Below are positions 1,885 to 29,794 of a stretch of 64,000 nucleotides of DNA, one piece after another. The stretch is from Vulcanimicrobiota bacterium. Its GTDB lineage: Bacteria; Vulcanimicrobiota; Xenobia; Xenobiales; JADMJV01. Numbering within the stretch: position 1 is the first letter of the stretch; every line of letters starts with the position of its first letter. Both the position numbers and the translations under genes were made by a program. The notes under the pieces were generated by a model. The model worked only from the letters and a program-made list of their open reading frames with translations. It was not told the origin of the DNA and ran no database searches. The stretch covers positions 395,302 to 459,301 of the forward strand of contig JBFWNU010000003.1 in assembly GCA_050250895.1 (NCBI GenBank). Reading direction: 5' to 3'.

Positions 1885-1916
1885 TTCAAAAATCTTTCAG
1901 GCCGGCCGGCTAGAGT
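1885..1916 (+). promoter_or_regulatory. Direct-repeat + -10 promoter motif, copy 1
   Basis: TTCAAAAATC-TTTCAGG-ccggccggc-TAGAGT. Confidence 0.7.
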
Positions 1917-1948
1917 GGCGGTATAGCACCTGGAAGGACACATCGACC

Positions 1949-2320
1949 ATGATCAACGCCGGCATCCCCAATTTTCGGGTTCCCTCTCATACCGCCTGTG
2001 GCGGCCAATGCAAATGCGGTGGCAGCTGCTCTCGCAGCAAGAAAGCCGGCGACGGCGCCGACTCGGCCGCTCCCGTGAAGTTGTCCGGACCTTCGTCGGC
2101 CGGCAAAACGGCCACCATCCAAGCCCTGGCAGAACAGACCGGCCAGCCGGTGCGCAGAGTCAACTTGTCGAGTGATACCCCGATGGCCGAACTGACTGGC
2201 CAGCCTCCCGCCTCTTCGGCCTGCGGCGGCGACTGCTCGAGCTGCGCTATCAAACATCTTTTCAAACCCCCGGCCGGCATGGCCGAGATTCGCCCCCCCG
2301 TCAAGTGGGCTCAGGACTAG
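1949..2320 (+). CDS. Small Cys-rich protein with a midasin/MoxR-like Walker A fragment
   Basis: RBS GGAAGGA. CGGQCKCGGSC ... PVKLSGPSSAGKTATIQALAEQTGQPVRRVNLSSDTPMAELTG ... CGGDCSSC. Confidence 0.65.
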   Translation: MINAGIPNFRVPSHTACGGQCKCGGSCSRSKKAGDGADSAAPVKLSGPSSAGKTATIQALAEQTGQPVRRVNLSSDTPMAELTGQPPASSACGGDCSSCAIKHLFKPPAGMAEIRPPVKWAQD

Positions 2321-2500
2321 CCGACCCAGCGGCGCGCCGCGAAGCGCCGTAGGGAACGACGAGAACGCCGCCCCCGCTGTAGTCTAGCAGCCTGACCATA
2401 CGTTCTCGTCGTGACCGTCAAGCCGCGGCCGGGCCGGCGTTCCTACGGAGCCGGCCCACCGGCGCGGAACTCGATTTGTCCCTGGCTGGTTGGCATGGGC

Positions 2501-3172
2501 ATGAAGAAGTTCCTGGTTTTGTTGTGTCTGTTCTCGACCCCTGCTCTGGCCGACGGAGTGGCCGTCATCGAGCTGTTCACCTCGCAAGGTTGCAGCAGTT
2601 GCCCGTCGGCTGACCGGCTGGTCAGCGAACTGGGCCAGGACCCTCGGGTCTTCACCCTGTCTTTTCATGTCGATTATTGGAACCGCCTGGGCTGGGTCGA
2701 CCCTTTCAGCCGGCCCGAATACACCGAGCGTCAGAAGGCCTATTCGCGGCACTTCAAGCAGCGCAACATCTATACTCCCCAGGCCGTAGTCAACGGGCGC
2801 TGGGAGTTGGTGGGCAGCAATCGGGCCGGTCTCGAGAGCTATCTCAAACAGGCCTTCCAAAGCCCGGCCACCGCCCTCAAGTTGGGCTCGCGGGTCGAGA
2901 AGGGCAAACTGTTCGTCACCGTTGAGGCGCCCACCCTCAAGAAGGCTAAGCAGCTCAACCTGGCCCTGGTGACCCCTCACGCTCAGACGGCCGTCGAGCG
3001 CGGCGAGAATAGCGGGAGACGGCTCGAGCACACTAACGTAGTGCGAGCGTTCAAGCAGGTCACCCTCGCCAAACCGGCTCAGCAGTTCTCGCTCGAGTTG
3101 CCGAATTTGAAAGGGCTGCAACTGGTGGCCTATTTCCAGGACGGGTCAGGAGCGGCCAGCCTGGATATCTGA
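2501..3172 (+). CDS. DUF1223 thioredoxin-like secreted protein
   Basis: Signal peptide MKKFLVLLCL..ALA; IELFTSQGCSSCPSAD, FHVDYWN.LGW.DPFS, YTPQAVVNG. Confidence 0.9.
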   Translation: MKKFLVLLCLFSTPALADGVAVIELFTSQGCSSCPSADRLVSELGQDPRVFTLSFHVDYWNRLGWVDPFSRPEYTERQKAYSRHFKQRNIYTPQAVVNGRWELVGSNRAGLESYLKQAFQSPATALKLGSRVEKGKLFVTVEAPTLKKAKQLNLALVTPHAQTAVERGENSGRRLEHTNVVRAFKQVTLAKPAQQFSLELPNLKGLQLVAYFQDGSGAASLDI

Positions 3173-3396
3173 CCTGGCCCGCTCTTGCGCACGGAAGTCG
3201 CCCGGCCCAGCGAGCCCAGGCCGGCGGGTCACCCCCCGCCCAGCCAGCCGAACAACGGCCCGGAGTGGTTGTCTTTCCCCGCCGCCCAGGCCAGCCCCGC
3301 CAAGCAGGGATACCACCCCGGCAGCCAGCCCAAGCCTGGCCAAGCCGGGATGCCACCCCGGCAGGAACCTCAAACTTTGGGCCTAACAGGGCGGCC

Positions 3397-4998
3397 ATGC
3401 AAGCGTGGTTGCTGGCCGCCCTGGCGGGACTGCTGGGCTTCTTGGCGACTCCACCCTACGACCAGTTTTATCTGGGTTGGGTAGAGTTCGTGCCTTTGCT
3501 GTGGGCCTGCCGAGAGGCCAGCCCCCGGCTGGCCTTCTTACTGGGCTGGCTGAGCGGCACTTTGATCAACCTGGGCGCTTTCTACTGGGTCTATGAGCTG
3601 ATGGTGACCCACTCGGGCATCCCGCCCCTGGGGGCGGTGGGATTGACCCTCTTCCTATCCGCCCAGCAAGGCCTGCGACTGGCTATCTGGATGGGCCTGG
3701 CGCGCGCCCTCGAAGAGCGGGCTCCGCGCTGGCTCCTTTATGCGGTGGTCTACACCGCCTGCGAGTTTCTCTATCCGACCATCTTCCCGTTGCACCTGTC
3801 CAACTCCCAACACAACTGCCTGTGGACCAGTCAGGCCATGGACCTGGCCGGACCGGCCGGCCTGAGCTTTCTGATGATCGTCTTTCAAGCGGGACTATGG
3901 AGCCTGCTCGAAAAGCGCAAGGCCAATCTCGACACTGCGGTGGGCCTGGGAGTGCTGGTGGCCACCCTGGTCTACGGTGGGGTGCGGGTGCATCAGGTCG
4001 AGGCGGTGATGAACGCAGCTCCCGTCCTGAGGATGGCCATGGTCGAGAACAATGTGGGGCTGGTCGAGACCAGCCAGGACGTGATGGGCGGCATGCAACT
4101 CCTGCAGACCCTGGCCGGTCGCGCCACCGCCGACCTGATCGTCTTTCCCGAGACCTCGGTCAAGACGCCACCCCCGCTGCATTGGGTGCGGGGCCGTAAC
4201 GACCCGGTCCTCGAACCGGTGTTGCACTATCCCCTGGGCCTGGCCGCCCTGGCCCAGAGCGGTCCCTACGCCCCTCAGCTGGGTTATCAAACGCCACTTC
4301 TTTTTGGCACGGTGGCCATCGACGAAGAGCATGAGGGGCCCATCCCGGGTCGACCCGCCCTCTACAACGCGGCCTTTTTGGTGGATGCCCAGGGTCAGGT
4401 GCTGGGCACGGCTCTCAAGAACAAGCTGCTGTTGTTTGGCGAGTTCATCCCCGCCGCCCGCTACTTTCCCTGGATCTACACCTCTATCCTCGACCGGGCC
4501 TCATGCCTGGTGCCCGGCACCGAGCCGGGAGTGCTGCCGTTTGACGGCCACCGCATCGGCGTCTCGATCTGCTACGAGGACATCCTGCCCAATTTCAACT
4601 ACCGCCTCGGGCGGGGGCAGCCTGAGTTGCTGGTCAATCTGACCAACGATGCCTGGTTTGGGAAGACGGCCGAGCCGGCCGCCCATCTGGCCCTGGCCAA
4701 GGCCCGCGCCATTGAGCTGCGCCTCTATATGGCACGCTCTACCACCACCGGAATCTCGGCCTTTATTGACCCGCTCGGTCGCGTGATGGCGCAAACCACC
4801 ACCGACGAGCCCGAATCGCTCGAACAGGACCTGGCCTGGATGCCGGGTGGCACTCTGTTCTCGGTCATCGGGCCTGGCTTTGCCTGGCTGTGCGTGGTGG
4901 TCTGCCTGGTCTGGATGGTTCAGGCCCGGCGGGCTAGGTCCCTAAACCCGACGGATACTCGATCTTCTCGATCGGACCGCCGGGCTGCCGCTGAATAA
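3397..4998 (+). CDS. lnt: Apolipoprotein N-acyltransferase
   Basis: N-terminal TM helices; nitrilase-fold motifs VFPET, KNKLLLFGEFIP, ICYED, NLTNDAWFG, RAIE, GISAFID. Confidence 0.92.
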   Translation: MQAWLLAALAGLLGFLATPPYDQFYLGWVEFVPLLWACREASPRLAFLLGWLSGTLINLGAFYWVYELMVTHSGIPPLGAVGLTLFLSAQQGLRLAIWMGLARALEERAPRWLLYAVVYTACEFLYPTIFPLHLSNSQHNCLWTSQAMDLAGPAGLSFLMIVFQAGLWSLLEKRKANLDTAVGLGVLVATLVYGGVRVHQVEAVMNAAPVLRMAMVENNVGLVETSQDVMGGMQLLQTLAGRATADLIVFPETSVKTPPPLHWVRGRNDPVLEPVLHYPLGLAALAQSGPYAPQLGYQTPLLFGTVAIDEEHEGPIPGRPALYNAAFLVDAQGQVLGTALKNKLLLFGEFIPAARYFPWIYTSILDRASCLVPGTEPGVLPFDGHRIGVSICYEDILPNFNYRLGRGQPELLVNLTNDAWFGKTAEPAAHLALAKARAIELRLYMARSTTTGISAFIDPLGRVMAQTTTDEPESLEQDLAWMPGGTLFSVIGPGFAWLCVVVCLVWMVQARRARSLNPTDTRSSRSDRRAAAE

Positions 4999-5911: not shown

Positions 5912-6035
5912 TGGTTTCTCTCTCTTTGGAAGTGCTGACCTACTTTCGAGTGTGCCGTCTTTGGGGCGCCAAGATCGTTACCGTCAGGTTGCCGATGTTA
6001 ACGACATGTTTCCGCGTTTCGGCGGCGGTGTTAAT

Positions 6036-6067
6036 TTCAAGCATGTTTGAGGCCAGTCGGCTAGGCT
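6036..6067 (+). promoter_or_regulatory. Direct-repeat + -10 promoter motif, copy 2
   Basis: TTCAAGCATG-TTTGAGG-ccagtcggc-TAGGCT, 8 nt before ATG 6076. Confidence 0.72.
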
Positions 6068-6075
6068 GAGAGTGT

Positions 6076-7182
6076 ATGGTCATTCGTCCTCTGCAAAGGG
6101 CATTGCTTTGGGCTCGGCGCGAGCCGGCGCCGAGGCATGACGAGCGCGACCTGATCGAGCGCTCGCCCAGCGGTCTGGTCCAGGCCGGGCGCACGGCCGC
6201 GGCGTTCGTATTACAGAAGGGTCTACCTCTGGCGGGCGTGGCGGTCGGTGGGGGCGCCGGATTGGCCGCGGGCACCGTCGCCACCGGCCTGTTGAGTTAT
6301 CTGGACGCACCCGAGCAGACCCCTCGACAGCGACTGACCGGGGCCCTGATCACGGCTGCCGGGGCCGGGCTGGTGGCGGGTGCGGCCGGGCTGGTTCACC
6401 CCGCGCTTGCCCTTGGCCTTTTGGGGGTCGGGACGGCCCTGGCGGCTGTGCTCGAGCTTGACTCGCGGCCTCACCAGAATTGGCGGGTCGACCTGGGCGG
6501 GTTCGCCGAGGCTTACGCCCAGCGGGCCGGCCAATTGCTGGCCGAGCGCGGTCTGGAGTTGCCGGGCTCGGGCCCAGGGTTTTCGCTTTCCGAGACGGGG
6601 GCCAACTTCCGGGCCCAGCGACGGATCGCCGAGATCACCGCTTTCAGCTGCCAGCATCTAGGGCCGGCGGCGGTGGTGGGACTGGTCGAGCAGTTGGGAC
6701 GGGAGCGGTTCGACTCGCAATTTGTCGACTGTCCTGAGCCGGTTCGCGTCACTTCGCGCCAGCAGCGCGATGGGGTCGAGATCGTGCGGGTCGAGGATTT
6801 GGCCGGCACCACCGCCCTGGCCGAGACCACCCGGGTGCTGGTGGACAGTTCGCTTGCGCCGGGCACGCCGCTTCACGATTTCGTGCTGGGTCACGAACTG
6901 AGCCACGTGCATCATCAGGACTGGGCGGCTCGACTGGCGGTGCTGACAGTAGGGGATAGCCTGTCGGGTGCGCTCGCTCGGCAATGGAAAGAGGCCGTTA
7001 AAGCAGCGACTCATCAGACCGAGCTACGCAGTGATGCCGAGGGAATGGGCTATGCGCTCAGGCAGGGTCACTCCCGGTCGGCCGTGCTGGAGGCGGCTCG
7101 GGGTCTCTTGGGTGAGGATCAGGCCTCGGCCCAGCACCCTGCCGGGCCGGAGCGTCTAAAGGCCCTGACTTTGGTTCTCTAG
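6076..7182 (+). CDS. Membrane-associated M48-like zinc metallopeptidase
   Basis: Hydrophobic Gly/Ala-rich helices; FVLGHELSHV, HQTELRSDAEG, HPAGPER. Confidence 0.75.
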   Translation: MVIRPLQRALLWARREPAPRHDERDLIERSPSGLVQAGRTAAAFVLQKGLPLAGVAVGGGAGLAAGTVATGLLSYLDAPEQTPRQRLTGALITAAGAGLVAGAAGLVHPALALGLLGVGTALAAVLELDSRPHQNWRVDLGGFAEAYAQRAGQLLAERGLELPGSGPGFSLSETGANFRAQRRIAEITAFSCQHLGPAAVVGLVEQLGRERFDSQFVDCPEPVRVTSRQQRDGVEIVRVEDLAGTTALAETTRVLVDSSLAPGTPLHDFVLGHELSHVHHQDWAARLAVLTVGDSLSGALARQWKEAVKAATHQTELRSDAEGMGYALRQGHSRSAVLEAARGLLGEDQASAQHPAGPERLKALTLVL

Positions 7183-7676: not shown

Positions 7677-7682
7677 GCCCAG

Positions 7683-7714
7683 AGCCTATTGGAGAACTCT
7701 TAAAAATCTTGAAA
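7683..7714 (-). promoter_or_regulatory. Direct-repeat + -10 promoter motif, copy 3 (leaderless)
   Basis: Minus strand TTTCAAGATT-TTTAAGA-gttctccaa-TAGGCT-ctgggc-ATG. Confidence 0.7.
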
Positions 7715-7756
7715 TAACTGGCGCCAAACGTTAATAAAGCGTTAAACGCCTTGGCG

Positions 7757-8578: not shown

Positions 8579-8666
8579 AACAAACTCCTTCTCGTTGGCT
8601 TGAGGGGTGACCCTCTTTCATGAGTTGGCCGAACGAGAACTGGCTGGATCGACAGGGCCAGCGAAA

Positions 8667-11451: not shown

Positions 11452-12306
11452 TTGGTAGTCGTTTGCGTACGGCCCGGGTCGAGAACCCGGGCGATCGCCG
11501 GCCATCTCGAAGAGCTGCCGCTGTTTTCCAAAGCCTGCGAAGAGAACCGAATCTGCTGGTCCAATCTGCGCGTGGTCACCCGCATCGTGACGCCCGAGAC
11601 CGAAGAGGCCTGGCTTGACCTGGCGGTGCGCCTCAAGCCTCATCGGCTGGCCCGCCTGGTGGCCGGGGCCAATCGCGGTGACACTCCGGCCGAGGCGGCC
11701 CTGAATATGGTAGAAGAGGTCGAGCTTCGTTTTCGGGTGACTCCCGAGGTGTCCGAGCTGTGGTCGCGAGCGGTGACCGTAATCTCGAGAGACAATGGGG
11801 GTACGGTCAATCCGGCCGAGGCGTTCGAATGGATCCTGGCCGACTTTCTGGGTGGCCAGGTAGAGCAGCTCAAGGTTGAGGCCGCCCAGGAGCTGGTCGC
11901 TCCGGTCGAGGCGCTGGCAATGCAGACACACGTGTGTCAGGGCGAGTCGAAGTTGCAATTGGCCGGACGGTTGAGGTTCAATCCCAGCAAGCGGCAGGCG
12001 ACTGCCGCCCAGCGCCGGGCAGTGCTGCGGCGGGATGGCTATCGCTGCTCTTGTCCGGGTTGCCCCAATCAACTCTGACTCGATGTGCATCACGTGGTGT
12101 TCTACTGTCGCGGCGGACCGACGGTGCCCGAGAATCTGGTGGTGGTGTGCTCGCGCTGCCACAAGAACATCCATCAGGGCATCCTGCGCGTGAGCGGGGT
12201 GGCTCCCCAGGGGCTGGTCTGGCGCGATCGCCGCGGACGTGATCTCGAAGGCCAGCGCGAGAGCGGGCTATTGGAATGGCTGCTGGAATGGGCTCGAGCT
12301 GGCTAA
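11452..12306 (+). pseudogene. DUF222-like HNH endonuclease, 5'-degraded, in-frame TGA at 12076-12078
   Basis: RRDGYRCSCPGCPNQL*LDVHHVVFYCRGGPTVPENLVVVCSRCHKNIHQG continues in the same frame across the stop. Confidence 0.8.
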
Positions 12307-12548
12307 GTTGCGGCGACGGTTCGTACCGAGCAACGCGCTCTTCATCCCAGCTATGCCATTGAATCGCTAAATTCGCGTTCGAACTCGAGAAGCTGAGATT
12401 CAGAGGCTCGGGCCACACGAAAGTCGGTTGACCCAATCTCAACAAGCTTCTTTTTGACTTCGTCCCTCATCGTTTGAGCCCAGCCATCCTTCGGAGAAGT
12501 TCTCGCGACGGCCAGCGCCCCGGCGGGTTTCGGTTGAAGCAGAACCGA

Positions 12549-12800
12549 TCACTCGTAGATTTTTCCTACAAGAAAGATCCTCGCAGCCAATCTCCAGGGC
12601 TCCGTGGACGGATCGACCTCTTTCGTATTCTCGAAAAACGGCATTTTCAACCAGGCGGATACGGCGTCCAAATAATTTTCTACCTTCCAATGCGCCCAAT
12701 CATCCGGAAAGGTAGCACAATCGCGCGAAAGAACTTCCAGAAATTTGGCAAGGTCTTCACGTGAAGCGACTGCATCTGCCATTTTTTCAAGATCATTCAT
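12549..12800 (-). CDS. Small AT-richer protein resembling polymorphic-toxin immunity proteins (DUF7660-like)
   Basis: VASREDLAKFLEVL..D....WA.WKVENYLDAVSAWL....P..EPWRLAARIFLVGKIYE; RBS GAGGAG upstream. Confidence 0.6.
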   Translation of the reverse strand: MNDLEKMADAVASREDLAKFLEVLSRDCATFPDDWAHWKVENYLDAVSAWLKMPFFENTKEVDPSTEPWRLAARIFLVGKIYE

Positions 12801-12938
12801 GATACCACCCCACTCCTCGTTCTTGGATGGATCCCCCCTCCATTTGTCAATGGAAATATTTCGCCTTCGATAGCAAAGATCCTAATCGGTGGTGTATCCT
12901 AGGCGGTAAGGCGTTCCGTTCGAAGGTCCCTCAGCTCG

Positions 12939-14055
12939 TCAACCTCCGAACCTGCGACCCTCGCGGTCTCGGAAAGTCAGGTCGTCGGGGGCAGTCCCAT
13001 CGATGAAGAGAAAGCCGTCGTGGACGTTGCGATGGCAGGCCGTGCACAAGAAAATCAAGTTATCCGGCACGGTCAGGCCGCCCAGGGCGAAGAAGCGGAT
13101 ATGATGGGATTGCAACCAGATATGGTTCGGGCAGTCGGGAGTCTGGCAGCAGTAGCAGTCGCGAATCTTGAGGGCTTCGGTCTGCGCCGGAGTGAGGCCG
13201 CGGGCGTCGGGGTTGAAGCGGAGCTTCGATGAGACCTCCCAGTGGGGCTCGGCCCGACAGGCCAACTCGACCGCGGAGTTGCCGGGGCACTCTTGGCCGT
13301 CGACCGCGGTGGTGGCCATGAAGAACTCGTCCCCCGGGGGACGAACGCCGAGCTCTTGAGCCAGTTCGTGAGCCTTCCGGATGGGGTCGGCCAGTTTGCG
13401 CCGGCGCGAAGCCGCCACCGCGGCCGCTCGGGCCCGCATCCCCTCGAGGTCCTTGTCGGTGACCGGAGCGGTCTGCAGACGTTGAGCCAACAAGAGGGCC
13501 AGAGCCTCTTTAAGCTCGACCTTGCGCCCCAGTTCGAGGGAAAGCGAATGCAAGGCCAACTTCAGCAGTTCGGCCGTCTCGGGGTCGAGGTGGAGGGTGA
13601 TCTCTTCGGTCTCCACCTTGGTGGGAGAAAGCTCACCGGGCAGGCCGCCTTTGGGAGTGGCGGCCACCAGGCGCCGGATAACCGAAGTGGAATATAGCGA
13701 GGCCAATTCGAGCCAGAGTTTTTCGGTTTCGGGAGTGGCTTTGCTGGCTCTCGCGCAGCTTGGCCCAACCGATGTCGCCTCGTTCGGCGGCCGCGGTGAG
13801 TTGGGGCAGGGCTTCGAGTTGGCGGGCCACGCGACGACAGGCGTTGGCCTCCTTCTTGGTCACTCCCAGCAGCCGGATGGCATAGTGGATCGGGCCGCTG
13901 CAGCCAAAGTCCTGGTAGCGACCGGTAACTTGAAGAGCCAGCAAACAGCGGCCGAGGATGATGCGATGGATGACCAGGCCGGTGCTGGCGCGCCGGGCCA
14001 TATGATGAAGGGCTTCAGGTTCGAGGGCATGAGTGTTTTCTTGAAGTGGTTTCAT
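12939..14055 (-). pseudogene. DUF222-like HNH endonuclease, frameshifted near 13750
   Basis: ORF 14055-13633 (..GDIGWAKLRE) joins the other frame (ASKATPETEKLWLEL..) and ends RDCYCCQTPDCPNHIWLQSHH..CTACHRNVHDG; paralog of 11452-12306. Confidence 0.8.
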
Positions 14056-15118: not shown

Positions 15119-15694
15119 TTAGTAGTATTGGCGCCGGGGCATCAGTAAGGCCCGGCGCAAATCGTTCTCGGCGGGTCTCTCCAACGGGATTCTGCCGGGA
15201 TAGTCGAGCCCCACGGCGTCCAATTCCGACTTCTCCACTTGTTCCCGTTCACCTGGGCTCGGATTCCATGCATGTCCAGTCGCCATCGTGCCGGTCGCGG
15301 CGTCCACCGCGTGAGCTAGCTCATGCCCCAGGGTCACCGCCGTGGGAGCGATCACACCCGCGTCGGTATCAGCCCCATCAAACATCTTGATAGAGCTATC
15401 TGAGCCGGCTCCGGGCCGGCCGTCCGGGCGTCGGTGACCGGTCTCCTCGTCGTAGTCCATCTCCGGGTCGTTCTCCATGGTCTCGCGGACGGTGACCCGT
15501 TTGCCGCTGGCGTCGAGGCGGCGGAGCAGGTCTCGCCCCTCGGGAAAGGAGCGAAGGGCGTCGATATCAGCCTTGACCCGATCGAGGAACCTCTTTCTGC
15601 CTCGCAAGGTCAGGGAGTGGCCGAGGCCGTTGGAGCCGGGAGGGAGCGTGACCCTGTGGTCCTCAGGTCTTCGGCCATGCCGGTATTCTGGCAC
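15119..15694 (-). CDS. Peptidase M91 (NleD-like effector-type zinc metallopeptidase)
   Basis: GRDLLRRLDASGKRVTV, DGRPGAGSDS, TLGHELAHAVDAATGT, ELDAVGL, ENDLRRAL..PRRQYY. Confidence 0.85.
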   Translation of the reverse strand: MPEYRHGRRPEDHRVTLPPGSNGLGHSLTLRGRKRFLDRVKADIDALRSFPEGRDLLRRLDASGKRVTVRETMENDPEMDYDEETGHRRPDGRPGAGSDSSIKMFDGADTDAGVIAPTAVTLGHELAHAVDAATGTMATGHAWNPSPGEREQVEKSELDAVGLDYPGRIPLERPAENDLRRALLMPRRQYY

Positions 15695-15803: not shown

Positions 15804-16205
15804 ATGAATTTCTCTCAAGGTGAGCTGGGGGCCGCGCTGGTGGGCATGGTCAGCGGACTGTCGCTGGCCTGGTTGGCCTTGGGCCTGCGCTATCGGCTGA
15901 TGATCTCCAAGCTGGTGGCAAAAGCCCGCGGCCAGGCGCTCAAAGCCAGCGGGGCGGTGCTCAAGGGACAGGCCGCTGAACAACTGGCGCCTCTAAGCGG
16001 GGGCTTCCCGTACCTGCCGGCCGACGCTCGCTTCTTGGGCAGTCCCATCGACTATCTGGTCTTTGATGGACTGTCCGAGGAGGGCCCGCTCGAGATCGTC
16101 TTTGTCGAGGTCAAGACCGGGCAGTCGCGACTCACGGCCCGCGAGCGGCGGGTGCGCGAGGCCGTCGAGGCCGGTCGCTGCCGGTGGGAAGAACTGCGAC
16201 TATAG
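15804..16205 (+). CDS. Holliday junction resolvase-like endonuclease (Endonuc_Holl family)
   Basis: N-terminal TM; EQLAP..YLPADARFLGSPIDYLVFDGL..IVFVEVKTG. Confidence 0.85.
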   Translation: MNFSQGELGAALVGMVSGLSLAWLALGLRYRLMISKLVAKARGQALKASGAVLKGQAAEQLAPLSGGFPYLPADARFLGSPIDYLVFDGLSEEGPLEIVFVEVKTGQSRLTARERRVREAVEAGRCRWEELRL

Positions 16206-16604
16206 CCAGCCTTCGTCGGTCAGGATTTCGACCGCGGCGGCGATGAAGTGGCGGCTCTTGGCCAGGGCCTCGTCGGCCATCGATTCGTTGAACACGGCGG
16301 CCGCATCGTAGTCGGCCGATTCTCGGTGGGCCTGCAACTCGCTTAGCCAGCCGACCATCTCGGCCGGTAGCCGGCCGGTGCGAGCAAAATCGCGATGCAG
16401 AACGTGAATCACACCGCGGTGAGTGCGCACCTCGATGCCTTCCATCAGGAGCAGCGCCCGAGCATGGTGGAAGGCCGCGTAGTAGGCATGGGTCATGGTG
16501 CCTTCGAGCAATCCCGAAGCCCGCAACAGTCGCGCGCTCTCGAGATCGCGGCCGGCGCGCTCGACCTCGAGCCGGATGTTAGAGCGGCGATTGGATTCGG
16601 TCAC
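16200..16604 (-). CDS. HEPN domain protein (toxin)
   Basis: AYYAAFHHARALL, THRGVI, RESADY. Confidence 0.88.
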   Translation of the reverse strand: MTESNRRSNIRLEVERAGRDLESARLLRASGLLEGTMTHAYYAAFHHARALLLMEGIEVRTHRGVIHVLHRDFARTGRLPAEMVGWLSELQAHRESADYDAAAVFNESMADEALAKSRHFIAAAVEILTDEGWL

Positions 16605-16930
16605 ACCGGAATCCCCTCGCGTTGAATGTCTTGAGCTAAACGGCGTTCGAGTTGCAGCAGGCGCTCGAAGTGACTTTCGGCCATGACCATGGGAGCGATG
16701 GGGAAAGCATAGTCGAATTCTTCGTAAAGCGGATGGAGCAGGCTAAACAGCCTTTCATGCAGTTGGGGATCGACCTCATCCACCAGTACGCAGAGGTCGA
16801 GATCCGAGTCGGGGCCGGCCTCTCCGCGGGCCACCGAGCCGAAGACCACGACCCGCTTGAGCCGCGAAGGAAACAGCTCGAGGGCCCGGCGTTTGAAGCC
16901 CTCGGCGGCCCGGCGAAAGGTCTCGTTCAT
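16601..16930 (-). CDS. Minimal nucleotidyltransferase (MNT) antitoxin
   Basis: VVVFGSVARGEAGPDSDLDLCV; ends IQREGIPV; 4-nt overlap with the HEPN gene. Confidence 0.9.
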   Translation of the reverse strand: MNETFRRAAEGFKRRALELFPSRLKRVVVFGSVARGEAGPDSDLDLCVLVDEVDPQLHERLFSLLHPLYEEFDYAFPIAPMVMAESHFERLLQLERRLAQDIQREGIPV

Positions 16931-16986
16931 CGGATCTGGGTTCGGGTTCGGGTGGCTCGGCGCCTGCGCAGACAGGCCCACCCGGG

Positions 16987-17430
16987 TCAGCGCTGGCGGC
17001 ACATGAGAAAATAACGGTTGCGTTCCTCAAAGCCGAGGCGGGCATAAAGCTCGCGAGCCCGGTGGTTGGTATGATCCACTTCCAGGTGCATCACCCGGAT
17101 GCCGAGCTGGTCGGCCTGTTCGATGGCTAGCTCGAGCGCCCGAGTGCCGATGCCCTGAGAACGGGATTGTGGCTGGATATAGAGGTCGTCGATGAAGGCG
17201 TCGCGTCCCCCCAGCTCGAGACTAAAGCCAAAGGTCATGGCCAGATAGCCGACCGGCTCGCCGGCGCGCACCAGCCAGAGGCGACCCAGAGCCGGCTCGG
17301 CCAGAAGCTGGGCCAGGGCGGCGCGGGCCTGACGGGGTTCGAAGTGCGACTCGACCTCGGCATAGAAGGCCTGCATCGCAGTCGTCAGCCAATCGAGATC
17401 CTCCCGGTTGGCCGGGGTCAGTTCGATCAC
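16987..17430 (-). CDS. GNAT N-acetyltransferase
   Basis: IDDLYIQPQSRSQGIGT, LEVDHTNHRARELYARLGF. Confidence 0.9.
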   Translation of the reverse strand: MIELTPANREDLDWLTTAMQAFYAEVESHFEPRQARAALAQLLAEPALGRLWLVRAGEPVGYLAMTFGFSLELGGRDAFIDDLYIQPQSRSQGIGTRALELAIEQADQLGIRVMHLEVDHTNHRARELYARLGFEERNRYFLMCRQR

Positions 17431-18135: not shown

Positions 18136-19119
18136 TCAGTCTACGGGTTGGGCGAGAAAAATGTCTGAAAGCTGATGGGCCAGTCGGCGGATGCGTCCAG
18201 GGGGGTAGTCTTCTTCTCGCACCCGGGCCAGCCAGGCTTTGGGAATGGCTGCCTCCCCCAGCAACGCTCCCGCGATGGACCCGGCCATGGCCGCGATGGT
18301 GTCGGTGTCGCCCCCGGCAAAGATGGCGGCCTCCACCACCCGCTCGAATTCGTGAGGATGGCTAAGAAAGCAGTAGATGGCCATGGGAACCGCCTCGAGC
18401 GCCGCTACCCCCGTGCCCAGGCGAGAGGCCATGGCCGGCAGCTCGAGCTGGCGGTCGAGGCCGTCCCGGAGCTGTTCGAGCCGGTCCAGGTAGGCGTCGG
18501 CCCGAAGATGCTCGAGAGTCCGCTCCAGCGAGAGCAAGAAGGCGTCGCGGTCCAAGGGTGGCTGCATTCGCAGGGCGGTGGCCACGGCCGCCGCCTGCAG
18601 GGTCGAACCGGCCACCGCCAGCGGATGCGAATGGGTGACCGTCGAAGCCAGGCGAGCTACCTGCACCAGGCGTTGGGGTTGGCGATGGAAGGCCAATCCG
18701 ATGGGGGCCACCCGCATGGCCGAGCCGTTGCCGTAGGAGCCGCCCGGAAACATCAAGGTGGACAGGGATTTCCAGTGGTGAGGGCGTTCGGGAAAGGCGC
18801 GCAGGATCCAGGTGACTCCCGAGCCGTAGCGGCGGGCCGGTCGGTAGGCCTCGGAAAATCGTGCCAGCAGGGCCTGGCCGTCGTCGACTTCGCCGGCCAA
18901 CAGCCATTCCGCCACGCACAGGGTCATCTGGGTGTCGTCGGTGTAGCGACCGACGCGCCAGCGACGGCCCAGGATGTCGGGCACCCACTCCGTGGCCAGG
19001 ATGTCGTTCACCTGGCGATAGTGTTTGGCGATGTAGCCTGGCGATTCGGACTCGACCACCGCGCCCAGCATGTCCCCCACCAGGCCTCCCAAGAGGCAAC
19101 CAGAAAAACGATTTCGCAT
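18136..19119 (-). CDS. ADP-ribosylglycohydrolase (DraG/ARH family)
   Basis: GDMLG, YTDDTQMT, SYGNGSAMRVAPIG, GGDTDTIAAMAGSIAGA. Confidence 0.93.
   Translation of the reverse strand: MRNRFSGCLLGGLVGDMLGAVVESESPGYIAKHYRQVNDILATEWVPDILGRRWRVGRYTDDTQMTLCVAEWLLAGEVDDGQALLARFSEAYRPARRYGSGVTWILRAFPERPHHWKSLSTLMFPGGSYGNGSAMRVAPIGLAFHRQPQRLVQVARLASTVTHSHPLAVAGSTLQAAAVATALRMQPPLDRDAFLLSLERTLEHLRADAYLDRLEQLRDGLDRQLELPAMASRLGTGVAALEAVPMAIYCFLSHPHEFERVVEAAIFAGGDTDTIAAMAGSIAGALLGEAAIPKAWLARVREEDYPPGRIRRLAHQLSDIFLAQPVD
18138..18169 (-). promoter_or_regulatory. Direct-repeat + -10 promoter motif, copy 4 (inside the 3' end of the upstream gene)
   Basis: Minus strand TTCAGACATT-TTTCTCG-cccaacccg-TAGACT. Confidence 0.6.
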
Positions 19120-24577: not shown

Positions 24578-24584
24578 CCCTCAG

Positions 24585-24608
24585 CGCCTCGACGAGAGGC
24601 GTTTTTTT
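24585..24608 (+). terminator. Rho-independent terminator
   Basis: CGCCTC-gacga-GAGGCG-TTTTTTT. Confidence 0.75.
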
Positions 24609-24611
24609 AAC

Positions 24612-25376
24612 TTACTTTTGGCCGGCGACCAGTTCCCGGGCGGCCTCGCGCAGGTCGGCCAGACCGTTGTCGAGATAGCTGGCATCTTCGGTTTCGAAGG
24701 CCCGGAGCATCTTGGCGAGAGCCTGCAAGCTGGCTTCGAAGGCGGCCAGACAGCGCAGGCGCAACTGGAAAGTGGCCGGGTCTTCGGTGTGAAAGTCGTG
24801 ATAGCGGTCGCGTTGGCGTTCCAGCGAGTCTCTCACCGACTCGACTGTCTTCTCGAAGGCTTCTCGTCCGCTGCCCTGGCGCCAACGCTCCAGGGCCGTG
24901 GCCACGCGAACGAAGTCCTCGGTGAGCAACTCGGGCTCGGGGGGCGCGCTCTCGCTCAGGCTGACCGTAGACTGGCGGGGGGCGTGCCAGCTGGGTAGCT
25001 GCACCGAACACGAGCCGCAACGGGGCGAGCCCACCGGGTTGGGTTGGGCGCAGCGCGGGCATAGGGCTTTGGCCACTTCTTCCAGGCTGTGCTGGGCCTC
25101 GACCATTTGGGCTACGGCCGCCTCGATGCGAGCCAGGCCGGGGGCGGGCTGCTCGAGGTGATCGGCCAGCCACTCGAGCGCTTCCAGGTGTTCGTCGAAG
25201 GCCTCCACCAGCTGATCACAGCCGGGCTCGTCGTCGGCGCTGGCTTCGAGTTCTTGCAGGTAGCCGGTGACGATATCGGCCACCTCTTCCAGTGTCGCCA
25301 ACAGGTGCTCGGCTTCGATCTCACCGGCCTGATAGGCTGCGAAGGCCTGGCGCAGCAGCTCCAGGGTCGGGGTCAC
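24612..25376 (-). CDS. Acidic helical protein with a central zinc ribbon
   Basis: CPRCAQPNPVGSPRCGSC. Confidence 0.7.
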   Translation of the reverse strand: MTPTLELLRQAFAAYQAGEIEAEHLLATLEEVADIVTGYLQELEASADDEPGCDQLVEAFDEHLEALEWLADHLEQPAPGLARIEAAVAQMVEAQHSLEEVAKALCPRCAQPNPVGSPRCGSCSVQLPSWHAPRQSTVSLSESAPPEPELLTEDFVRVATALERWRQGSGREAFEKTVESVRDSLERQRDRYHDFHTEDPATFQLRLRCLAAFEASLQALAKMLRAFETEDASYLDNGLADLREAARELVAGQK

Positions 25377-25378
25377 GT

Positions 25379-25939: not shown

Positions 25940-25945
25940 GCCCTC

Positions 25946-25977
25946 AGTCTGGCAGATCGGTCTTAAAGATACCTATC
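25946..25977 (-). promoter_or_regulatory. Direct-repeat + -10 promoter motif, copy 5 (leaderless; first box degenerate)
   Basis: Minus strand GATAGGTATC-TTTAAGA-ccgatctgc-CAGACT-gagggc-ATG. Confidence 0.55.
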
Positions 25978-26176
25978 CCGTGCCGAGGGTCGCTTCCAGA
26001 GTGGTCTGGCGCTCGTCGAGTTCCTCGAGCAAGCAGCGTAAATAGTGCAGGTCGTTGAGGTGGTCGGCCTGCTCGTCCTCGTCCTCGGTGGCTTGCAGCG
26101 CCGCCTCGAGTTTCTCGATGTGGACTTTGACCGACAAGACCAAGAAATGGAGAGCTTTGGACGAGAAGGGTTTCAT
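25973..26176 (-). CDS. Small acidic helical protein, putative immunity protein
   Basis: SSKALHFLV...EDEDEQADHLNDLHYL..LLEEL; RBS AGGAG. Confidence 0.6.
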   Translation of the reverse strand: MKPFSSKALHFLVLSVKVHIEKLEAALQATEDEDEQADHLNDLHYLRCLLEELDERQTTLEATLGTG

Positions 26177-26178
26177 GG

Positions 26179-29100
26179 TTACTCCTGGACCGGCACGTTG
26201 AAGTCGCCGATGATGACCTGCTCTTCTTCGCGCTCAAGCGAAGGGTTCGAGCGGGGTTGGGTCGAGACGTAGAGGTTGACGGCTGTCTTGATGGCTTCGG
26301 CGATGGCCGGGTCGGCGGCCCCGCGGGCCCGCTCGCGACTGACCAGGGCGGTCAAGAATTCGGTCGCCTCGGCTTCGCTTTGACCGTGGCCGGAAAGAGC
26401 CAGGTGAGCCACGCACAGAGCGCCGGCCAGGGCGGGCGAGCCGGCCACCGCCATGTAGGTCTCGCCCAGGGCCGGGTTGGCTCCGCTCGAGACCAGCTCT
26501 ACCGCGCCCACGAACTGCCCCTGGCCGGCCATCTTGACGAACCAGTGGACCTGTGGCCCAGTCCAGTTTTCGATCGCACTCAGCTCGGCCAGTCCAGCCA
26601 CTAAATGGTCGCCCTGACGGTCGCGCATCGCGTCGCGGGCGGCCTCCACGACGGCCATGGCCTGATCTGGCCCGAGCCGTCGCTCGACCAGGCCGGCGAA
26701 GCTTGCATAGAGTCCCTTCATGACCGCATACTGGTTCAAGGGAGTTGGCAGCTTTTCATACTCGACCAGCTGTTTGTAGGCTTCCACTCGCTGGCCGAGA
26801 TCGAGCTGGGCCAACGGTTTGGCCAGGAGTTCTTGCACCTCGCTGGCGGCTTTGGCGGCAAATCCATGCTCGGTCATGGTCACCGACAATTCGGCCAGAG
26901 GGGTGCCCTGGCTTTTGGCCAGCAACCCCAGCAAGCCTTCGATCTCGCTCGACTCGAGCCCGCGCCCGATACCGCCGGTCACTAACCGAGCCAGGTCGGC
27001 TGGCTCGAGGGCCGGCTGCTGGCTCCAGGTCTTGTAGGCGCTGGCCACGTCGGCGCCGTGGCTCTCTACTCCGGCGAAGGCCTCCCGCAGCGAGGTCAAG
27101 CGCTGCATGGTGGTGGCCCTGTCGTCGCCGGCTTCGAGACGCTGGCTGTAGGCGGCGTAGGCGGCATCCATGACGGCATAGGTGCTAAACGGAGGCTTGA
27201 GGTCCTCGAGCGCGAGCATACTGGCGAAGTCCTCGGCTCGCTGGGCGAAGGTGGTGGAAGCTCTGGGTTTTTCTAACTCTTCGACGAACTTCTTGGCTTG
27301 CTCGGCGCTGTAGTGCGGTTTGGCCATCAGGGTCAAAAGGCGCACCCGGGCCGGGTCGTGGTCGAGCAACTCGATGAAGCTTAGCCTGTCGTCGCCTAGC
27401 TTCTGAAAGGCCTCGTAGGTCTCGGTGAGGTCAAGCGTTCCCAGACTGGCCGCTTTGGACGCGAAGGCGAGATCCCAGCCCTTCGAGAGCAGCGGAGCAA
27501 GCTTGGGCACGGTCTCTTCCATCTTGCCCTGGAGTTGTTCAAAGACGGTGACATACTCCTGGAATCCAGCTCCGCGCTCGGCCAGCGACCCCCTCAGGGT
27601 GATGGCGTTTTCGAGGGCCGTGTCACCGTGGCCGGCTTTGACTTCTTCGCCAAAGGCGTCATAGAGCGCATGCATCACGGCGTACTTGTTGAGCGGGTCT
27701 TTAAGATCGTCGAGTCCGATGAGGCGAGAGAAGGCCTGGTTGCGCTCGGCCAGAGTGGTGCCGGGCAGGTCGGCGTGGATCTTGGTCATCAGCTTTTTGG
27801 CCTCCTCGGCTGAAAAGCCGGTCTCGACCATTCGCAAAGCCAACTCGCCCGTCTCGGGGGCCTGGCCGTAGAGTTCGGCAAAGACGATCTGGTCGGAGCC
27901 GTCCGTCTTGAGTTTTTCGAATCCGGCCGTGAGCCTGCTCAGGTGCTCGGGCGGTGGCGGGTCCTTCAGCAGGCTGGCCAGCTTGACCCCGAAGTCGACC
28001 GGCACCCCTTCCTGGAGGAAGGCCAGCAGATGGTCGAGTCGGGTCGGGTCCTGGACCATCTCTTGATGATAGACGGCCATGCCCTCCTTGCCGAACTGCT
28101 CGCCGCGGGTGAAGGCGTCGCGCAGTCGGATGGTGCGCTCGAGAGCCTGAGGTTGCGGTCGACCGGCTTTTAGCTCGGCCCGATAAGTAGCCAGCAGTTC
28201 TTCCATCACCCCGTATTGATTGAGCGGCGGCTTCAAGTCGTCGAATTTCAACAGCTTGCGAAAAGCGTCGACCTCCTGGCTTACCGAACTCGAGGCCGGT
28301 GGCTTACTTAAGGCTTTCGAGAACTGCTCGGCGTACTTGGCGTCATAACCGACCCTGGCCATGTCCACGAGCAACTCCCGCGAAGACGGCTCGGCCAAGC
28401 TACCGGCCAGCTCGATCCAGGTGCCGGTGTCGCCAAGTTGTCGGGTTTTCAGTGGCTCGAGCAGGGCGTTGACGGTATCCAGCTGGTCAGGAGCCTTCTC
28501 ATAGGCTCGCTGTGCCCAGTTGTAGGCCCACCCGGCCTCGAGTTGGGCGGTGATGGTGGCCACGCTCTCGGGATGCTGGGTGCAAAACTCCAGCCCCTCT
28601 TTGAGCGAGTTTGCGTCGGTGAGCAAGACATTGCGAAGTTGCTCGACCTGGTGCAGGTCGCCATGGACGGCGTAGGCTGAATAGAGCGCCTCCATGACGG
28701 CATACTGGTTGAGAGGGGCCTTCAGGTCTTCGACCTTGATCAGCTTTTCAAAGGCGGCCACGCGCTCGTCGAGGCTGGTGGCAGCGACCGGCTCCTGGAT
28801 GCGCTTGAGGAACTTCTCGGTGTGTTCAGCATCAAAGCCCGTCTCGACCATTCTGGTCAAAAGCCCGACCTGAGCCGGGGGCAGCTGGTCGAGCAGCTCG
28901 AATCGTTGGAGCTTCTCGTGATCCCTTAGTTGCGAGCCCTGTAGGGCCTCGTTGAGCCGGGCCATGGCCGGTACCGAATGGCGAGACTGCAATCGTCTGG
29001 CCGCTTCCGCCAACCCGTTTTCGGGTTGGCGACCGGGCACCAGGCCAAAGCTCATGAAGAGGGCGGCGTTGGAGGGAAAATCTCCGCTGACCAGGTGGTC

Positions 29101-29718
29101 GAGAACCTCCGGGTCGCGAGCCCGGTTGGCGCAGTCGAGAAACAGCTTGCGAGTGTCGTCGGGCAGTTTCCAGCTTAATTTGGCCAGGGTCTCGGTAGAT
29201 TGCCCGTGCTGGTGGCAGTGGCGGTAGAGTTGGGCCATCACCCAGGCGGGCTCTTCCTCGGCCCGCCCTTTAAGTTGCTCGAGTTGGGCCAGTTCGCCCG
29301 GCTCGAGTTCGAGCCCGTCAAAGTGATACTCCAGGGGAGCCGAAGCCTCGGGCCAGCGGTTCTCGACCTGCAAATACGCCTGGTAGGGAGCCAGCGACAG
29401 CTCGACTCCATGTTCGGCCAGATTCAGCAGGCTTTCCGCGGCCGGCGGGGGGTCGGCCTTGAGGCCGTGAAACGCCAGCAGGGCAGCCAGATCGCCAGGG
29501 GTGGCCACGGGTGCAAAGCTCTCTCCCAGCTTGGTGAATAGCTTTCCGCCGCTGAGTTTGTCTCCGGCCTCGTCGGTGGTGACGGTTCGGTAGGGCGACA
29601 TCAGGCCGGGCACATAAAAACTGCGCCGTTCAAATAGCTCGACCGGGCCTTCCTCGAGGGGCGGCCTGGCTCGACTCGGGTTGGCTGAGTGCGAGACTGA
29701 GAGAGGACCGATTTTCAC
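26179..29718 (-). CDS. 1179-aa helical repeat protein of unknown function
   Basis: Five repeats ending (E/D)DLK.PLNQYAVM; C-terminus EEEQVIIGDFNVPVQE. Confidence 0.85.
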   Translation of the reverse strand: MKIGPLSVSHSANPSRARPPLEEGPVELFERRSFYVPGLMSPYRTVTTDEAGDKLSGGKLFTKLGESFAPVATPGDLAALLAFHGLKADPPPAAESLLNLAEHGVELSLAPYQAYLQVENRWPEASAPLEYHFDGLELEPGELAQLEQLKGRAEEEPAWVMAQLYRHCHQHGQSTETLAKLSWKLPDDTRKLFLDCANRARDPEVLDHLVSGDFPSNAALFMSFGLVPGRQPENGLAEAARRLQSRHSVPAMARLNEALQGSQLRDHEKLQRFELLDQLPPAQVGLLTRMVETGFDAEHTEKFLKRIQEPVAATSLDERVAAFEKLIKVEDLKAPLNQYAVMEALYSAYAVHGDLHQVEQLRNVLLTDANSLKEGLEFCTQHPESVATITAQLEAGWAYNWAQRAYEKAPDQLDTVNALLEPLKTRQLGDTGTWIELAGSLAEPSSRELLVDMARVGYDAKYAEQFSKALSKPPASSSVSQEVDAFRKLLKFDDLKPPLNQYGVMEELLATYRAELKAGRPQPQALERTIRLRDAFTRGEQFGKEGMAVYHQEMVQDPTRLDHLLAFLQEGVPVDFGVKLASLLKDPPPPEHLSRLTAGFEKLKTDGSDQIVFAELYGQAPETGELALRMVETGFSAEEAKKLMTKIHADLPGTTLAERNQAFSRLIGLDDLKDPLNKYAVMHALYDAFGEEVKAGHGDTALENAITLRGSLAERGAGFQEYVTVFEQLQGKMEETVPKLAPLLSKGWDLAFASKAASLGTLDLTETYEAFQKLGDDRLSFIELLDHDPARVRLLTLMAKPHYSAEQAKKFVEELEKPRASTTFAQRAEDFASMLALEDLKPPFSTYAVMDAAYAAYSQRLEAGDDRATTMQRLTSLREAFAGVESHGADVASAYKTWSQQPALEPADLARLVTGGIGRGLESSEIEGLLGLLAKSQGTPLAELSVTMTEHGFAAKAASEVQELLAKPLAQLDLGQRVEAYKQLVEYEKLPTPLNQYAVMKGLYASFAGLVERRLGPDQAMAVVEAARDAMRDRQGDHLVAGLAELSAIENWTGPQVHWFVKMAGQGQFVGAVELVSSGANPALGETYMAVAGSPALAGALCVAHLALSGHGQSEAEATEFLTALVSRERARGAADPAIAEAIKTAVNLYVSTQPRSNPSLEREEEQVIIGDFNVPVQE

Positions 29719-29724
29719 CCTTAG

Positions 29725-29794
29725 AGTGTAAACAAGCGGTCCTAAAAAACCCTGAAGCCCATTTCAGGAAACTTTCAACCCGGTAGAATAACCT
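29725..29794. promoter_or_regulatory. Back-to-back copies 6 and 7 of the promoter motif (bidirectional)
   Basis: Minus: TTCAGGGTTT-TTTAGGA-ccgcttgtt-TACACT-N6-GTG. Plus: TTCAGGAAAC-TTTCAAC-ccggtagaa-TAACCT-N7-GTG. Confidence 0.75.

Follow-up and report, generated by a model that had tools for sequence, protein, structure and literature searches.

A lineage-specific direct-repeat promoter class in a Vulcanimicrobiota genome and the shared N-terminus of the proteins encoded behind it

Introduction

In the pho box of Escherichia coli PhoB and in other class II promoters of OmpR-family activators, a group that includes the actinobacterial PhoP and GlnR, tandem direct repeats of 11-bp period occur where a -35 element would otherwise lie. 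Here, we analyze an element of similar layout, hereafter the box, which occurs seven times in a stretch of 64,000 nt (the window; contig C3:395302-459301) from the large genome of an uncultured Vulcanimicrobiota soil bacterium. The resemblance to the pho box lies in tandem 11-bp-period repeats that occupy the position of a -35 element and stop about 10 bp short of the -10 box. The element is genuine, its statistical support is overwhelming, and it is specific to its lineage. What can be observed directly comprises the motif and its rigid spacing, where it stands relative to start codons, the lack of it at the other promoters examined, its phyletic distribution, and the features shared by the downstream proteins. 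In the literature searched, neither this motif nor any promoter or leaderless transcript of the phylum is described.

In plant pathogens, one box can mark a whole repertoire of secreted proteins, as the PIP box read by HrpX and the hrp box read by HrpL do. Such coupling of a promoter with a protein signature is how the effector repertoires of plant pathogens and Legionella were first recognized; the site of the Legionella regulator PmrA itself adjoins the -10 box. PmrA is a winged-helix response regulator (RR) and a global direct activator of dispersed Icm/Dot effector genes, about 40 in L. pneumophila (PMC6989116). Type III substrates of Pseudomonas syringae are described by three rules: Ser makes up more than 10% of the first 50 residues, position 3 or 4 is aliphatic or Pro, and none of the first 12 residues is acidic (PMC3338616). 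AfsR, a SARP regulator of Streptomyces, binds direct repeats located 8 nt upstream of the -10 box and overlapping the -35 element, with a 20-bp spacer between -35 and -10; the same face of the DNA carries two adjacent OmpR-type domains, with displacement of sigma region 4 (PMC11301090). The degenerate unit bound by mycobacterial PhoP is given as A-C-K-K-K-Y-A-R-C (PMC3413638). For large-genome Eremiobacterota, a predatory lifestyle has been suggested from other evidence (PMC9259500).

Results

The Box Is a Discrete Promoter Class with Rigid Geometry

The host assembly comprises 9.50 Mb in 17 contigs with 63% G+C; marker genes indicate 99.6% completeness and 3.7% contamination. The initial annotation listed seven copies of a fixed-geometry repeat in the window. 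The strict pattern TTCARR-N4-TTT-N13-YANNNT matches the window five times (1885+, 6036+, 18169-, 29756-, and 29763+) against an expectation of 0.01, and none of 100 dinucleotide shuffles of the window reached five. There are 70 strict matches genome-wide, and their alignment gives the full element as tTTCAG-N5-TTTCAG-N10-TAGnCT. The TTT of the initial pattern is the beginning of a second copy of TTTCAG, forming a direct repeat with an 11-bp period, and the positions that had been left unspecified are conserved too. A weight matrix built genome-wide and iterated to convergence finds 348 sites scoring at least 17, the threshold used, compared with 10 in the reversed, non-complemented genome. The scores are bimodal and cleanly apart from this null, with no continuum. 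The matrix also recovers the two copies missed by the strict pattern, 7714- and 25977- (scores 21.9 and 18.4), which the initial annotation had listed as shifted and degenerate, respectively. All seven sites are real; as a count, seven holds for the window, while the genome total of about 348 is far larger.

The geometry is fixed throughout the genome, as had been proposed for the window. The combination TTCAG-Nx-TTCAG peaks at x = 6 with 74 occurrences, compared with 6-12 for each of the remaining values of x between 2 and 11 (6-25 in the reversed null). With the -10 box added, TTCAG-N6-TTCAG-Ns-TANNNT also has a single preferred spacing: s = 10 gives 52 matches, and the other values between 5 and 15 give 0-3 each. 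Thus defined, the box is a discrete promoter class and not a product of chance.

The sites are dispersed and only mildly clustered, with 75 gaps shorter than 5 kb versus 58 +/- 6 in random placement. Seven sites per window exceeds the genome average of 2.3 per 64 kb; six of 148 bins of 64 kb contain at least seven. Ten divergent back-to-back pairs exist genome-wide, one of them in the window (29756/29763). Nothing is conserved outside positions 0-34, and the box is therefore not a mobile repeat; a mobile-element origin was rejected. Two genes, D293 and D294, are identical 79-aa Gly/Asn/Ser-rich open reading frames (ORFs), each behind a high-scoring box (33.2 and 32.7), which looks like a recent duplication including the promoter.

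The seven boxes of the window and the genes behind them are as follows:

Box 1, 1884..1916, + strand: tTTCAAA-N4-TTTCAGG-N9-TAGAGT, score 33.6; 123-aa Cys-rich ORF 1949-2320 without a Pfam or NCBIfam family, after a 32-nt leader containing GGAAGGA.
Box 2, 6035..6067, + strand: TTCAAG-N4-TTTGAGG-N9-TAGGCT, score 33.9; ORF 6076-7182, 368 aa, weak Peptidase_M48 match, start 8 nt past the -10 box.
Box 3, 7683..7715, - strand: TTTCAAG...TTTAAG...TAGGCT, score 21.9; ORF 7676-7179 (D187), 165 aa, N-terminal P-x-D-x-V-A-L-S motif, start 6 nt past the -10 box.
Box 4, 18138..18170, - strand: TTTCAGA-N4-TTTCTCG-N9-TAGACT, score 27.1; ORF 18113-17427, 228 aa, after a 24-nt leader containing AGGAGG.
Box 5, 25946..25978, - strand: the weakest copy (score 18.4, threshold 17), distal repeat degenerate, -10 box CAGACT; ORF 25939-25379 (D189), 186 aa, P-V-D-S-V-E-L-Q at residue 30, start 6 nt past the -10 box; followed by a second gene, ORF 25376-24612.
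Box 6, 29725..29757, - strand: TTCAGGG-N3-TTTTAGG-N9-TACACT, score 26.0; ORF 29718-26179, 1179 aa, GTG start 6 nt past the -10 box.
Box 7, 29762..29794, + strand, back to back with box 6: TTTCAGG-N4-TTTCAAC-N9-TAACCT, score 29.5; ORF 29802-32264, 820 aa, GTG start 7 nt past the -10 box.

A search of NCBIfam returned no family for eight window proteins, namely the seven driven by boxes and ORF 24615-25376.

Most Box Promoters Abut the Start Codon

At 132 of the 348 sites, a coding-like ORF has its first start codon 6 nt past the end of the -10 hexamer; the gap is 7 nt at 28 sites and 4-9 nt at 201. Since this is the canonical distance from the -10 box to +1, these transcripts would begin at the start codon, i.e., be leaderless. 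A -10 hexamer ending 6-7 nt before the start leaves no room for a Shine-Dalgarno sequence. The five window copies first described as leaderless (6036, 7714, 25977, 29756, and 29763) do have such gaps, of 8, 6, 6, 6, and 7 nt.

The leaderless habit is general in this genome and extends beyond the box class. The pattern TANNNT-N6-ATG/GTG precedes coding-like ORFs 908 times, compared with about 400-430 at other in-phase spacings; filtering by an upstream in-frame stop leaves 522 such sites against 128 at N9. The box class accounts for 113 of these 522. The other 409 have no repeat, and 59% of them carry G at -14 (extended -10, TGnTANNNT); in box promoters, this G is found in 45% of cases against a background of 31%. 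The middle three positions of the -10 hexamer are G 41%, A 38%, and C 46% in the non-box leaderless promoters and G 57%, A/G 36% each, and C 64% in the box class. These similar preferences argue for the same sigma factor, and we read the two classes, on promoter sequence, as two architectures probably served by a single sigma factor. At the position expected of a -35 hexamer given a 17-bp spacer, the box promoters have A-G-n-n-T-T, which is not TTG-like. The lack of a -35-like hexamer together with the weaker extended -10 (45% versus 59%) makes the box promoters look activator-dependent.

Genes Downstream of the Box

The 343 assignable downstream ORFs form 279 BLAST clusters and therefore do not represent one expanded family. 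A random sample of 76 of the 189 site-bearing regions, containing 132 ORFs, was scanned against Pfam, and 80 of these ORFs have no family at E <= 1e-3. In the window, no family was found for six of seven box genes versus 20 of 49 other genes, and around the flagellar loci for seven of 47 genes (E <= 1e-4). Pooled, this gives 86 of 139 box genes (62%) against 27 of 96 background genes (28%), with an odds ratio of 4.1 and p = 4e-7; the background is the window plus the flagellar surroundings and not a random sample. The enrichment before family-less genes, for which the initial annotation had asked to look, is thereby present. Its wording that the box stands only before orphan effector-like genes is too strong, as 52 of the 132 sampled ORFs have ordinary Pfam domains.

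Most of these 52 ORFs encode lipid-acting enzymes, peptidases, or signalling proteins. The lipid-acting enzymes are represented by five PlsC-type acyltransferases, two GDPD phosphodiesterases, one GDSL lipase, two transferases similar to monogalactosyldiacylglycerol synthase, and one polyhydroxybutyrate depolymerase. Peptidases belong to C92 (two), C11, M48 (two), M42/M28, S8, S41/tricorn, and M15. There are also four giant InhA-like proteins, a cytochrome P450, an animal-type haem peroxidase, WD40 and PQQ propellers, an amylase with a glycine zipper ahead of it, three PilZ proteins, a hybrid histidine kinase, and a FliF-like ring protein. A further box gene, beyond the sample, encodes a 1062-aa patatin-like phospholipase. 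No phosphate-related genes were seen among the 132 ORFs. "Effector-like" is a fair description of this mix, which may serve antagonism or predation, as the initial annotation suggested.

The initial observation that the box was not seen before housekeeping genes extends to the genome. None of the 64 tRNA genes has a box within 400 nt upstream, and neither flagellar locus contains a site scoring 14 or more, the best score for flagellin being -4.5; this check covered tRNA genes, flagellar loci, and flagellin, with rRNA and ribosomal-protein operons not checked individually. A promoter link to flagella was considered and rejected, both loci and flagellin being without the box. A third FliF-like gene, C2:554979-556562, has a borderline box (18.8).

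Proteins Behind the Box Share an N-Terminus

In translation, the proteins behind the box, unrelated otherwise, share a front end: Met, then Arg, Lys, Gln, or Val, then Ile or Val. A stretch rich in Pro, Ala, Ser, Thr, and Arg and without acidic residues follows, P-x-D-x-V-E-L-S/G often lies at residues 26-35, and a Gly-rich hydrophobic segment often comes next. The control consisted of 243 other predicted leaderless proteins, whose start codons are likewise fixed by the promoter. Ile or Val at residue 3 is found in 61% of the 201 leaderless box proteins versus 18% of controls (odds ratio 7.0, p = 2e-20), the absence of acidic residues in the first 12 in 71% versus 47%, and a motif of the D-x-V/I-[ESTQA]-L type within residues 15-70 in 21% versus 3%. 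A hydrophobic N-terminus resembling a Sec signal or transmembrane segment is present in just 3% of the 343 box proteins, compared with 30% of controls. Transmembrane-like segments starting at residues 30-150 occur in 32% of box proteins versus 22% of all genes, and their Gly content is 19% versus 11%.

A naive-Bayes model on the first 45 residues reaches a cross-validated area under the curve of 0.83. Trained on leaderless genes only, it scores above 0 for 72% of leadered box genes versus 26% of controls. This transfer indicates that the signature belongs to the proteins and not to leaderless mRNA. Seen from the protein side, a box is present at 34 of the 130 genes that fit a loosely defined N-terminal pattern, versus 304 of 7432 genes overall (odds ratio 9.2). 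Several clear bearers of the motif have no box, perhaps because they sit inside operons.

Of the P. syringae rules, two show enrichment among the box proteins. The rule for positions 3/4 holds for 76% of the 343 box proteins versus 51% of controls and the no-acid rule for 72% versus 47%; the Ser rule holds for 21% and is not enriched. All three are obeyed by 14% versus 4%.

As a separate observation, many of the control leaderless genes genome-wide start in a pilin-like way, with M-K-R-x-G-F-S/T-L-x-E.

Distribution in Related Genomes

The relatives are labeled by family: f1 contains the host genus and genera g2 and g3, f2 and f4 are other box-bearing families, and f3 is the sister family. Counts are matches to a 32-nt pattern per genome, for which the backwards-read control gave 0-1:

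G000, the host genome (1 genome): 52 matches.
G001, a relative of the same genus (1 genome): 46 matches.
f1, genus g2 (6 genomes): 22-32 matches.
f1, genus g3 (8 genomes): 3-15 matches.
f2 (5 genomes): 25-56 matches.
f4 (2 genomes): 7 and 9 matches.
f3, same order, 1.9-4.7 Mb (19 genomes): 0-2 matches, none in 17 of 19.
f12, AT-richer, 5-8 Mb, the exception among other families (5 genomes): 1-7 matches.
Other genomes sampled from the phylum (about 215): 0-4 matches outside f12, mostly 0-1.

The box with the same geometry was found in all 15 relatives from f1, all five from f2, and both from f4, and in only two of 19 from f3 (1-2 matches each). It is abundant in the related large-genome families f1, f2, and f4 and nearly absent from the sister f3 and from more than 200 other genomes of the phylum.

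The 820-aa protein behind box 7 has no full-length orthologue in the 25 relatives searched. Residues 20-250 recur in many giant proteins of the host genome and f2; only about the first 250 residues are found again, on proteins of 860-2038 aa in G000, G001, and f2, and the distribution is modular and patchy. At 10 of 13 f2 loci with homologues, there is a matrix match of at least 12 with the start codon 6-9 nt past the -10 box, and the N-termini of these homologues are in the style of the box proteins. The ESM Atlas gave no usable feature match for this protein (model with a predicted local distance difference test, pLDDT, of 0.48; all structure matches with a template-modeling score below 0.5).

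Proposed Mechanism and Candidate Regulators

We propose, with a probability of roughly 0.62, that the box is an activator-dependent promoter at which a dimer of an OmpR/PhoB-family protein, either a classical RR or of the SARP type, works with the housekeeping polymerase to control a lineage-specific regulon of about 350 promoters. Two TTTCAG half-sites, 11 bp apart, would lie at about -39 to -23 and replace the -35 element, the proximal one ending exactly 10 bp before the TAGnCT hexamer. The winged-helix dimer would bind them head to tail on one DNA face and recruit the housekeeping RNA polymerase, i.e., act by class II activation. Transcription would start 6-7 nt past the -10 box, which coincides with the start codon in about 58% of cases. 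The promoters would act as one regulon of about 5% of genes, most of whose products would be fast-evolving and have an unstructured acid-poor N-terminus instead of a Sec signal. The half-sites with a period of about 11 bp, the proximal repeat at a fixed 10 nt from the -10 box, and the absence of a TTG-like -35 are the features of a class II site; from these we infer the activator class. The start sites, the co-expression of the genes, and any export of their products are likewise inferred.

Of the 29 Trans_reg_C matches in the genome, 19 are classical OmpR-type regulators; the other 10 are long proteins with a C-terminal BTAD domain preceded by receiver, HD, or AAA domains. Eight of the latter have a winged helix plus BTAD at E <= 1e-4 (SARP-type), and two have BTAD only. 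With 39 BTAD matches in the genome, this is an unusually large SARP-like family outside Actinobacteria. The box-negative genomes G033 and G039 have six Trans_reg_C matches each, and presence or absence therefore has little power. A box immediately in front of the gene, which would indicate autoregulation, is absent from all 29 winged-helix genes.

Requiring a clear orthologue in the class-level relative G040 (f4) and none in f3 left four candidate orthogroups:

C1:106829-107533, RR-A, with paralogues C1:3693801-3694463 and C11:57912-58571.
C8:295619-296302, RR-B, present in g1, g2, f2, and f4 and absent from g3 and f3.
C1:347561-348247, a third candidate group with a weak case.
C1:2082290-2084410, an HD-winged helix-BTAD protein, full-length in G001, all eight g3 genomes, G006 (g2), and G040.

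RR-A is an orphan regulator without an adjacent kinase. A protein at least 60% identical to it is encoded in 16 of 21 box-positive relatives; the best match in f3 is at most 45% in 18 of 19 genomes, with no match at threshold in G031 (86% complete). In C1:102425-108470, an apparent operon consists of a box, the 1062-aa patatin-like phospholipase, DUF1684, RR-A, a 95-aa ORF, and a phosphoribosyltransferase; the phospholipase carries the N-terminal signature. The position of RR-A within a box-led operon would give positive feedback. A PP2C phosphatase gene converges on this operon. RR-A or one of its paralogues is our single best guess for the binder, with roughly one chance in four.

Weighing the Readings

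Several points weigh against activation by an OmpR/PhoB-type protein. The 348 targets are many for a single OmpR-type regulator, and four candidate groups share the shortlist for it. RR-A and RR-B are each missing from some box-positive genomes, and the best SARP-type candidate has no full-length orthologues in the box-rich g2 and f2, apart from G006 (g2). The layout of the RR-A operon is unconserved, with a nearby site at four of 17 loci elsewhere, about the chance rate. The presence or absence of BTAD was rejected as a marker of the box, as the box-negative g8 and g9 have 14-17 BTAD matches. In addition, gene calls were home-made (codon log-odds, longest start), which makes the leader lengths in the 131 leadered cases approximate, and in the Pfam scans only residues 1-1000 of any ORF longer than 1000 aa were covered.

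The strongest rival, which we regard as improbable, is that the box is read by an alternative sigma factor dedicated to it or by an activator from a different family, e.g., AraC-type. Large single-motif effector or attack-phase regulons are often sigma-driven, as exemplified by HrpL (PMC4149516), and only candidate regulators are shortlisted here. The initial annotation proposed either a response regulator or an alternative sigma factor. The attack-phase regulon of Bdellovibrio is reportedly driven by the sigma factor FliA. The -35/-10 spacer of sigma-70-family promoters ranges from 15 to 18 bp; in the box, TTTCAG is separated from the -10 hexamer by 10 bp (proximal copy) or 21 bp (distal copy), both outside this range, and the hexamer resembles that of the non-box leaderless promoters. 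The sigma option thus fails the spacing test, and the repeat geometry fits OmpR, PhoB, and SARP activators. As for AraC-type proteins, tandem identical half-sites would better suit two identical DNA-binding domains than the unlike helix-turn-helix units of an AraC monomer.

Still less probable is that the repeats are the operator of a global repressor covering the -35 region of constitutive extended -10 promoters. The site does overlap the promoter, and G at -14 remains enriched over background; however, the extended -10 is weaker than in other leaderless promoters, the lack of a -35-like hexamer makes these promoters look activator-dependent, and the exact 10-bp register (52 versus 0-3) points to a need for protein-polymerase contact, where a steric repressor would tolerate slippage.

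That the lineage has no such regulon and the box is simply its general housekeeping promoter in a strong or consensus version is very unlikely: the sites are frequent (about 350) and share the -10 hexamer and leaderless habit with other promoters, but tRNA genes, both flagellar loci, and flagellin are without it, about 290 other likely leaderless promoters have no trace of the repeat, the scores are bimodal rather than continuous, the downstream proteins are a biased set, and matches number only 0-4 in f3 and in the roughly 215 genomes sampled elsewhere in the phylum.

A Possible Export Route

The coupling of the box with the N-terminus suggests that the box genes are one co-regulated, possibly exported, arsenal. 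In its full form, this idea is tentative and, in our view, rather doubtful: a repertoire of 350-450 co-switched proteins (about 5% of the proteome) would leave the cytoplasm Sec-independently by means of the M-x-I/V ... P-x-D-x-V-E-L-S leader. The members would include patatin-like and GDSL lipases, PlsC-type acyltransferases, phosphodiesterases, clostripain-, subtilisin-, and InhA-like proteases, an animal-type haem peroxidase, glycine-zipper membrane proteins, and many giant orphans. The route could be one of two flagellar-type gates, helped by an expanded family of soluble paralogues of the FlhA C-domain.

Two complete gene sets of the flagellar type are present, and each encodes an FlhA, FlhB, FliF, FliG, and FliH of its own (C1:585628-594099 plus C1:121700-129600; C1:1458932-1476156). 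The second set includes FliI, an 899-aa FliK, FlgD, FlgE, and MotAB at C1:119-129 kb. A dedicated co-regulated injectisome was not found, these two sets being the only ones of the kind and neither having a box, and the export markers TssC, VirB4, and WXG100 were not found in the genome. There are eight further matches to the FlhA cytoplasmic C-domain, and the stand-alone paralogues are located as follows:

C6:529281-530666, stand-alone FlhA C-domain.
C1:2013805-2014935, the same.
C1:2473604-2476609, the same.
C7:117220-118743, the same.
C7:121829-122929, the same.
C1:1126937-1128244, the same.
C8:31611-33212, the same.

Three of the paralogues scanned are fusions, with an XRE-type HTH_3 domain, FliG_N, and the FlhB C-domain as their respective partners; we know of no description of soluble FlhA_C fusion proteins. 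FHIPEP matches number 3-19 in box-positive genomes versus 2-3 in the 19 box-negative f3 genomes, 16 of which seemingly have one full-length FlhA and one C-domain paralogue. Among the best 150 matches, a second full-length FlhA was found in the host and 11 of 21 box-positive relatives. The link between the regulon and flagellar export is only correlational, with few independent lineages and genome size as a confounder.

Other Genes of the Window

Directly behind the 228-aa gene of box 4, co-directional genes for a GNAT acetyltransferase, a nucleotidyltransferase, and a HEPN protein are packed at 16203-17430 (- strand), apparently in one operon with it; the last two look like an MNT-HEPN toxin-antitoxin pair. 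The remaining features are:

18139-19119, - strand: ADP-ribosylglycohydrolase gene immediately upstream of box 4, itself without a box.
15122-15694, - strand: 191-aa Peptidase_M91 protein (Pfam "Effector protein", E = 1e-26); its match to the XopG/HopH type III effector subfamily is weak and sub-threshold (32.6 bits, cut-off 150), and no box lies upstream (best score -8.7).
12085-13706: HNH endonuclease fragments (73 aa and 255 aa) with G+C of 0.605 versus about 0.65 around, within a composition drop at 12-16 kb that may be a foreign-DNA remnant.
34955-42701: gene cluster with two type IV pilin-like N-terminal methylation motifs (36775-37188 and 38546-39271) and a 998-aa orphan.
43695-44696, - strand: ankyrin-repeat protein gene, without a box.

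Comparison with Known Systems

About 350 near-identical promoters would place this regulon among the largest single-motif regulons inferred for any bacterium. The lineage is almost unstudied and mostly uncultured, and the box provides a concrete gene list for the predatory lifestyle proposed in PMC9259500. It is also a ready handle for genome mining across f1, f2, and f4. Here, a promoter class is coupled to an N-terminal signature on otherwise unrelated proteins, among them enzyme families that elsewhere depend on Sec signals. If the export reading were true, a Legionella-scale effector arsenal would exist in a free-living large-genome lineage already suspected of predation, and its export signal and master switch would both be undescribed.

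The pho box differs from the box in number and setting: tens of sites there against about 350 here, most of which are fused to leaderless starts, no phosphate-related genes among the ORFs sampled here, and a cognate regulator known only as candidates. The half-site TTTCAG(G/C) fits the mycobacterial PhoP unit as given in PMC3413638. With SARPs, the box shares a 20-bp spacer, here between the distal TTCA and the -10 box (compare the AfsR account in PMC11301090), and the host has the 10 long BTAD-ending proteins, eight with a winged helix. However, SARPs usually govern one gene cluster; the winged helix-BTAD unit is C-terminal here and follows receiver, HD, or AAA domains; the repeats stand 10 nt rather than 8 from the -10 box; and BTAD is also present in box-negative relatives.

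For an effector-like regulon, PmrA of Legionella would be the nearest analogue. In Legionella and Coxiella, PmrA is associated with a known secretion system and a C-terminal signal, unlike the N-terminal signature described here; there are ten times more promoters here, and the type IV marker VirB4 was not found in the genome. The PIP and hrp boxes are read by AraC-type and ECF (extracytoplasmic function) sigma regulators and accompany an injectisome, compared with flagellar-type export genes only in our host, and the Ser rule of P. syringae substrates is obeyed by just 21% of box proteins. Like those systems, ours combines one box with loose N-terminal preferences, which resemble the rules for position 3/4 and for the absence of early acidic residues (PMC3338616). 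The mechanism is most likely of a known kind, tandem winged-helix sites abutting a -10 box being textbook; what is new is the scale of the regulon and its coupling to a shared protein N-terminus.

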